From: a phage
Length of the DNA stretch: 64,000 bases
Sequence record: PQ724394.1
Direction: 5' to 3' (one strand)
Positions 58,023 through 58,684 of the stretch are shown here, piece after piece (position 1 is the first letter of the stretch; each line of letters opens with the position of its first letter). The translations under genes and the position numbers were made by a program. The notes under the pieces were generated by a model that was not told where the DNA came from, made no database searches, and saw nothing but the letters and a program-made list of their open reading frames with translations.

Positions 58023-58232
58023 TTATTTTAGCCATGAAGAATTTTCAGAGACCCAGCTATCTATATCTGATTGAGGCCCAAAGAAGTAGGCAACCCCATT
58101 AGATAACTCTCCTGAAAGCCAATTTATACCTTTCAGGCTTTCTTTAAATTCTTCAGGAGTACAAGAAACCTCTATTGCCACCGAAGAGGCTGACTCCATT
58201 GCTTCTGTTAAGAATTCTTTGTATGATTTCAC
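58023..58232 (-). CDS. internal-protein-like protein with leader variant
   Basis: N-terminus [10 protein letters not shown]|A. Confidence 0.45.
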
Positions 58233-58684
58233 TTTAAATCCTCGGCCCAGTCGAGCTTCAAGGGTTCTTTATATTCTCTATCTAAAACGACAGGAATCTG
58301 GACATCTCCACTAAAGGTAAGAGGTCCTACATTATAAGACAATGTGATATGAGGGGTATAATCATCGAAATCGTGCGTAGCACCTAAGGTACGAGCATAC
58401 TGATGGCGGCATTTAAGATACTCTGAATCGAGAACCAGTACCAAGACAGGAGAATCACCGTGTTTCCACACTTCAAGATGTCCTGACGAAGCAACTTCGA
58501 AACTTCCGGATGCAACGGTGTATGGAACGTTGACTCTTGAATAACAAATTGTGGAATGGAATTTTTCACGAGGAACCGGATTAGGAACCTTTAAAGTGCG
58601 CTGAAGATTTTCCAGCGCATCTAAAGTCAATTCAGAGAATTTTGCAGCAACGTATAGACCTTGAGCAAAATCTTCGGTTTTCAT
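58229..58684 (-). CDS. 57B: 2H phosphoesterase (gene 57B position; Acb1-type anti-CBASS phosphodiesterase candidate)
   Basis: 151 aa; two H-x-T-x motifs (HSTI, HITL); conserved position before 57A. Confidence 0.65.

Follow-up and report, generated by a model that had tools for sequence, protein, structure and literature searches.

Gene 57B of phage T4 was identified by activity-guided fractionation as encoding Acb1, an enzyme that degrades 3'3'-cGAMP (Hobbs et al. 2022, PMC9117128), and lysates of T4 Δacb1 lose this activity. All ten Acb1 proteins assayed (that of T4 and nine others) cleaved 3'3'-cGAMP and cAAA, while cGG and cA4 were not degraded (PMC9117128), and Acb1 is unable to cleave the 2'-5' bond of 3'2'-cGAMP. 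Under CBASS, T4 Δacb1 has a >300-fold replication defect that is absent when CBASS is absent; an independent transposon screen in T4 likewise found that acb1 matters only with CBASS present (bioRxiv 10.1101/2025.11.20.689424). The promiscuity of Acb1, which also cleaves 2'3'-c-di-AMP and cA3, triggers type I and type II Panoptes guard systems (PMC13577387, bioRxiv 10.1101/2025.08.21.671373).

Nine catalytic or ligand-binding residues have been named for Acb1: Y12, H44, T46, W74, F107, H113, T115, E141, and W147 (PMC9117128). Structures of the FBB1 enzyme assign base stacking to Y12, W74, F107, and W147 and an adenine-specific contact to E141; H44, T46, H113, and T115 form the catalytic HxT/HxT tetrad, and residues 145-152 make up a C-terminal lid that shuts on the ligand (PMC9117128). 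In T4, the H44A substitution abolishes activity (PMC9117128), and an H44A/H113A double mutant is catalytically inactive. Deletion of T4 residues 145-152 abolishes Panoptes activation, which its authors attribute to a requirement for the lid in catalysis (bioRxiv 10.1101/2025.08.21.671373).

Identity and active site of the 57B homolog

A preliminary description of the window (the whole 64,000-nucleotide stretch of DNA analyzed here, PQ724394.1) proposed a 57B homolog and Acb1-type anti-CBASS nuclease candidate at 58229-58684, with no strand given. These coordinates match, stop codon included, a minus-strand ORF of 151 aa (58229..58684) that begins with ATG at 58684, ends with a TGA stop at 58231..58229, and is full length, free of frameshifts and internal stops. 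Three overlapping alternative-frame ORFs (58384..58569, minus strand; 58642..58959 and 58661..58861, plus strand) lie inside the conserved acb1/57A genes and were set aside as by-products of ORF listing. The description had also stated, correctly, that T4 57B is Acb1, a 2H phosphodiesterase degrading cyclic oligonucleotide immune signals.

An alignment with T4 Acb1, which the preliminary description had proposed as a check, shows 129 of 151 residues identical (85%; 91% similar) over the full length and without gaps (NP_049750.1, with the 57B gene fetched from NC_000866 and then translated). The best match among solved structures was Acb1 of Erwinia phage FBB1 (PDB 7T26/7T27; E=3.1e-59), aligned over residues 9-148 with one single-residue indel, and Pfam PF23474, "Anti-CBASS protein Acb1," matched with a score of 198.2 bits (gathering cutoff, 27), covering positions 1-144 of the 144-position profile. 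These three independent comparisons, with solved structures, with Pfam, and with T4 57B, agree in pointing to Acb1. PHROG 755 also matched (E=1e-66) and is labeled "RNA ligase," and an NCBIfam search of the protein returned no matching model. Because gapless 85% identity and a full-length Pfam match coincide with the same genomic position as in T4, we conclude that 58229..58684 very probably encodes a functional ortholog of T4 Acb1 (57B) in a Dhakavirus-like T4 relative, with its activity predicted through that orthology.

The similarity to 7T26 (E=3.1e-59 across 140 residues) also suggests, at the sequence level, a compact single-domain 2H phosphoesterase fold. A single-sequence AlphaFold2 model (mean pLDDT 38.4, pTM 0.30) was unusable and says nothing either way about the fold, and FBB1 Acb1 (7T26, apo; 7T27, with 3'3'-cGAMP) provides a structural template for both the 2H fold and the ligand pocket. 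The sole indel in that alignment, of one residue, falls in the loop after the W73 position. FBB1 Acb1 differs from the window protein and T4 in having F and Y at the W73 and F106 positions (aromatic in both), and its first motif reads HTTI rather than HSTI.

The case for a 57B homolog had originally been built on two H-x-T-x motifs, HSTI and HITL, in a 151-aa protein. Both were confirmed when read from the DNA and located by script: H43-S-T45-I (aa 43-46; codons CAT TCC ACA ATT; 58547..58558, minus strand) corresponds to T4 H44/T46, and H112-I-T114-L (aa 112-115; codons CAT ATC ACA TTG; 58340..58351, minus strand) to T4 H113/T115. By itself, the pair is not significant: in 200,000 composition-preserving shuffles of the same 151 residues, 5.0% carried at least two H-x-T-x and 18.9% at least two H-x-[TS]-x. 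Since composition-matched shuffles so often carry two such motifs, the pair is insufficient as stand-alone evidence and is a lead rather than evidence. We judge the motifs real because both line up with the catalytic HxT positions of Acb1 when the window protein is aligned with T4 Acb1, PDB 7T26, and 12 other phage homologues. The motif-based reading was therefore borne out by homology, while the notion that two motifs suffice to establish it was not.

Residue numbers in PMC9117128 follow T4, as indexing of the T4 sequence confirmed, and the window protein is offset by one residue, being shorter by that much at its N-terminus (MKT... versus MMEF... in T4). All nine of the residues named there are identical to T4 in the window protein (Y11, H43, T45, W73, F106, H112, T114, E140, and W146); the two catalytic histidines, whose loss the preliminary description had named as telling against its reading, are thus kept. 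The base-stacking residues Y11 (T4 Y12; 58652..58654), W73 (T4 W74; 58466..58468), and F106 (T4 F107; 58367..58369) and the adenine-reading E140 (T4 E141; 58265..58267) are all encoded on the minus strand, as is the C-terminal lid (aa 144-151, LDWAEDLK; 58232..58255), which aligns with T4 and includes the remaining stacking residue, W146 (T4 W147). The lid equals T4 residues 145-152 (LDWADDLK) in length and differs by one conservative change. Tetrad, stacking aromatics, E141 equivalent, and C-terminal lid are thus all common to the window protein and T4 Acb1.

Across a 13-homologue alignment reaching down to 31% identity, Y11, H43, T45, H112, and T114 show no variation and E140 almost none. 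This alignment spans T4, Dhakavirus, Kanagawavirus, Jiaodavirus, Marfavirus, Muldoonvirus, Acinetobacter, Krischvirus, and Pseudotevenvirus representatives, two Vibrio phages, and a Salicola jumbo phage. Most of the 22 substitutions relative to T4 affect the N-terminus, the loop following W74 (five of them), and surface positions; the 22 include I43F beside the catalytic histidine (F42 here). They spare every named contact residue, and the substituted positions also vary across the other homologues in the 13-sequence alignment.

Genomic setting and expression

The source genome is, judging from its sequence, a Dhakavirus-like T4 relative. The 6 kb around acb1 are ~97% identical to Escherichia phages Esco_phi_B-01, MN04, UP19, IME281, and EcWhh-1, the last of which is classified as Dhakavirus. 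GenBank PQ561418.1 encodes a 100% identical Acb1 protein; its surrounding 5.5 kb are only 98.2% identical, so that we rejected it as the source of the window and regard it as a close relative instead.

Gene order around acb1 is that of T4. On the minus strand, gene 4 (61186..61635), gene 2 (60362..61198), gene 3 (59686..60279), gene 1 (58925..59686), and 57A (58684..58932) precede acb1, which is followed by two small internal-protein-like genes, homologues of Trna.4/.3/.2, and a tRNA cluster. Gene 1 encodes a dNMP kinase (Pfam DNMK, 301 bits) and 57A, directly upstream of acb1, a tail-fibre assembly chaperone (Pfam GP57, 98.9 bits; PHROG 1002). The "57B position" assigned in the preliminary description therefore holds: as in T4, acb1 lies immediately downstream of the gp57A homologue, after gene 1, and beside internal-protein genes. 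An acb1 gene is downstream of 57A in 11 of the 11 T4-like homologues sampled; that of the Salicola phage is not.

The genes are tightly packed. The 57A TAA stop and the acb1 ATG share one base (TAATG, versus an ATGA junction in T4), and the next gene's GTG start codon overlaps the acb1 stop codon (GTGA), suggesting co-transcription and translational coupling. The downstream neighbor is a different internal-protein-like gene from the ipI found in T4: a 69-aa ORF (58023..58232, minus strand) whose GTG start overlaps the acb1 stop. Together with 57750..58004 and 54864..55481 (both minus strand), it is one of three ORFs with an N-terminus of the internal-protein capsid-targeting type (compare MKTYQEFIAE in T4 IPII/IPIII). 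Of the three, the 84-aa ORF alone matches an "internal head protein" PHROG, and none resembles T4 ipI, ipII, or ipIII beyond the leader. These ORFs are candidate injected anti-restriction proteins of a variable locus beside acb1.

Further along, a 184-aa ORF (55552..56106, minus strand; PHROG 2143, E=6e-80) with a hydrophobic N-terminus is flanked by the tRNA cluster and an internal-protein-like gene, with an exact late-promoter box (56133..56140) just upstream. The tRNA cluster itself (56219..56715, minus strand) comprises tRNA-Met(CAT), tRNA-Asn(GTT), and tRNA-Arg(TCT), called by ARAGORN and confirmed with Rfam. An additional ARAGORN call, a 97-nt "tRNA-Phe(aaa)" at 56219..56315, had no Rfam support and is probably spurious or another structured RNA; in the T4 reference genome, the tRNA cluster ends with the small stable RNAs rnaC and rnaD.

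Scans for sigma-70-like, MotA-box, and exact late promoters identified no promoter dedicated to acb1. An exact T4-type late promoter box (TATAAATA) lies at 61662..61669 on the minus strand, 27 nt upstream of gene 4. No other exact late-promoter match occurs on the minus strand between gene 4 and acb1, and no terminator-like site was found on that strand between the box and acb1. The box is a candidate source of a late 4-2-3-1-57A-57B transcript and would, on this arrangement, drive acb1. It belongs to a back-to-back pair of exact boxes (61647..61654, plus strand, and 61662..61669, minus strand) in the 46 bp that separate the divergent genes 53 and 4.

Sigma-70-like sites were at chance level (12 versus 12.9 expected). 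Sites resembling MotA-box middle promoters (TGCTTYA, then 10-14 nt, then TANNNT) numbered 14 in the whole window against 2.3 expected from shuffles; ten of these are on the minus strand, and 56784..56808, 52484..52508, and 21625..21648 (all minus strand) are examples. This enrichment fits a T4-like middle transcription programme. No MotA-box-type site occurs between gene 4 and acb1 or directly upstream of acb1. In T4, Acb1 activity appears ~15 min into infection, and 57B expression is middle/late (bioRxiv 10.64898/2026.03.30.715471). The promoter layout at acb1 fits this reported timing, and the present phage would be expected to express the gene on a similar schedule.

Predicted function and alternative readings

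The likeliest function of the window protein would be metal-independent cleavage of adenosine-containing 3'-5' cyclic di- and trinucleotides, blocking CBASS. Orthology with T4 Acb1 is the basis on which we predict its enzymatic activity, its substrate range, its expression timing, and its anti-CBASS effect in vivo, and transfer of function appears safe because every one of the ten Acb1 proteins assayed was active and because the window protein is an ortholog at 85% identity. We envisage a small, single-domain, metal-independent enzyme of the 2H phosphoesterase fold, whose U-shaped pocket would, by analogy with T4 and FBB1 Acb1, bind a cyclic di- or trinucleotide. Y11, W73, F106, and W146 would stack on the bases, E140 would read the adenine N6, and the lid (aa 144-151) would close over the bound ligand. 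The strained adenosine 2'-OH could then attack the adjacent 3'-5' phosphodiester over the H43/T45/H112/T114 tetrad, opening the ring via a 2',3'-cyclic phosphate intermediate to give a linear 3'-phosphate product. In this way, 3'3'-cGAMP, cUA, cAAA, and cAAG would be removed before CBASS effectors are activated, leaving the infected cell without an abortive response. Expected limits are those of T4 Acb1: cGG, cA4, and the 2'-5' bond of 3'2'-cGAMP would stay uncleaved. The same promiscuity predicts that the phage is vulnerable to Panoptes guard systems.

The differences from T4 could instead mark an enzyme of the Acb1 family with a shifted substrate range, for example toward less 2'3'-c-di-AMP activity, thereby avoiding Panoptes, or toward an altered di-/trinucleotide preference; we consider this improbable. 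In this structural group, substrate selectivity is governed by the enzyme core and varies among related 2H phosphodiesterases (bioRxiv 10.1101/2025.08.21.671373), promiscuous Acb1 is selected against by Panoptes (PMC13577387), and the 22 differences include F42 beside H43 and loop 74-80 beside the stacking W73. However, all named ligand contacts and the lid are identical or conservatively changed, and the substituted positions are also variable in the other aligned homologues. The available example of shifted specificity, 2H PDE-9 (PDB 9Q2G, deposited as "Anti-CBASS protein Acb1," 165 aa), belongs to the same 2H superfamily and likewise degrades 3'3'-cGAMP, following the same anti-CBASS logic; its lid is N-terminal, whereas that of Acb1 is C-terminal, and it cleaves 2'3'-c-di-AMP poorly and therefore does not trigger Panoptes (bioRxiv 10.1101/2025.08.21.671373). 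Its match to the window protein is marginal (E=0.0035), a relationship far more distant than the 85% identity with T4 Acb1. Even less likely is the narrower proposal that F42 and the rebuilt loop (aa 74-80) have shifted the substrate profile of the Dhakavirus Acb1 allele, possibly by reducing cleavage of the Panoptes decoy 2'3'-c-di-AMP while retaining anti-CBASS activity. If true, a close ortholog of Acb1 would offer a natural example of counter-adaptation to guard systems.

The database names would imply a LigT-like protein, either a 2'-5' RNA ligase or a 2H enzyme of RNA repair, since PHROG 755 and RefSeq both label the family, T4 57B included, "RNA ligase." LigT-type 2'-5' RNA ligases/2',3'-cyclic phosphodiesterases share with Acb1 two HxT/S motifs and the 2H superfamily but act on a different class of substrate, and the sub-threshold Pfam match to 2_5_RNA_ligase2 (PF13563; E=0.061) reflects that shared superfamily. 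This match reaches 13.8 bits against a cutoff of 27 and is partial (residues 69-122), compared with 198 bits for Acb1; moreover, no NCBIfam model matches, the T4 ortholog was found as a 3'3'-cGAMP-degrading enzyme whose activity is lost from Δacb1 lysates, and the Acb1 literature examined contained no report of ligase activity for 57B. We therefore reject the ligase identity, which seems to us barely credible. The "RNA ligase" label appears to be a homology-based legacy name, and the LigT-type resemblance is the source of this misleading annotation. A decaying or inactive acb1 copy has a natural precedent in phage Bas43, where acb1 carries a nonsense mutation; Panoptes selects for loss of function (PMC13577387). 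Here, by contrast, the ORF is full length with catalytic and binding residues intact, and 52 phage records hold the protein at ≥95% identity. Relative to EcWhh-1, the nearest annotated relative (97.6% nucleotide identity), acb1 shows nine synonymous and two non-synonymous differences (dN/dS 0.06); against T4, pN is 0.13 and pS 0.77, the latter at saturated synonymous sites. The gene is thus under strong purifying selection, and we regard inactivity as extremely unlikely.

Annotation and anti-CBASS gene content

The window acb1 gene is a routine, already known ortholog: the family, structure, mechanism, and T4-like distribution of Acb1 have been published, with 273 phage Acb1 proteins reported by Hobbs et al. 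(PMC9117128). We found an Acb1 homologue in 1,472 phage records, 28 of them at ≥99% protein identity, including the identical product in PQ561418.1; most of the 1,472 carry the labels "hypothetical protein" and "RNA ligase." The proper label is acb1 (anti-CBASS cyclic-oligonucleotide phosphodiesterase). The gain lies mainly in corrected annotation, and this ortholog opens no new biological question.

The window also contains a homologue of Acb2, the cyclic-nucleotide sponge encoded by T4 Vs.4. This 92-aa ORF (44251..44529, minus strand) is 64.5% identical to Vs.4 by tblastn, scores 59 bits with Pfam PF24729 (Acb2_Tad1_hairpin; cutoff, 27), and adjoins a regB homologue, as in T4. Both anti-CBASS genes known from T4 are therefore present in this phage as homologues of Acb1 and Acb2. 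Together they predict resistance to many CBASS systems and possibly to type III CRISPR systems that signal through cA3, while the predicted sensitivity to Panoptes is relevant for host-range prediction and for the choice of phages for therapy.
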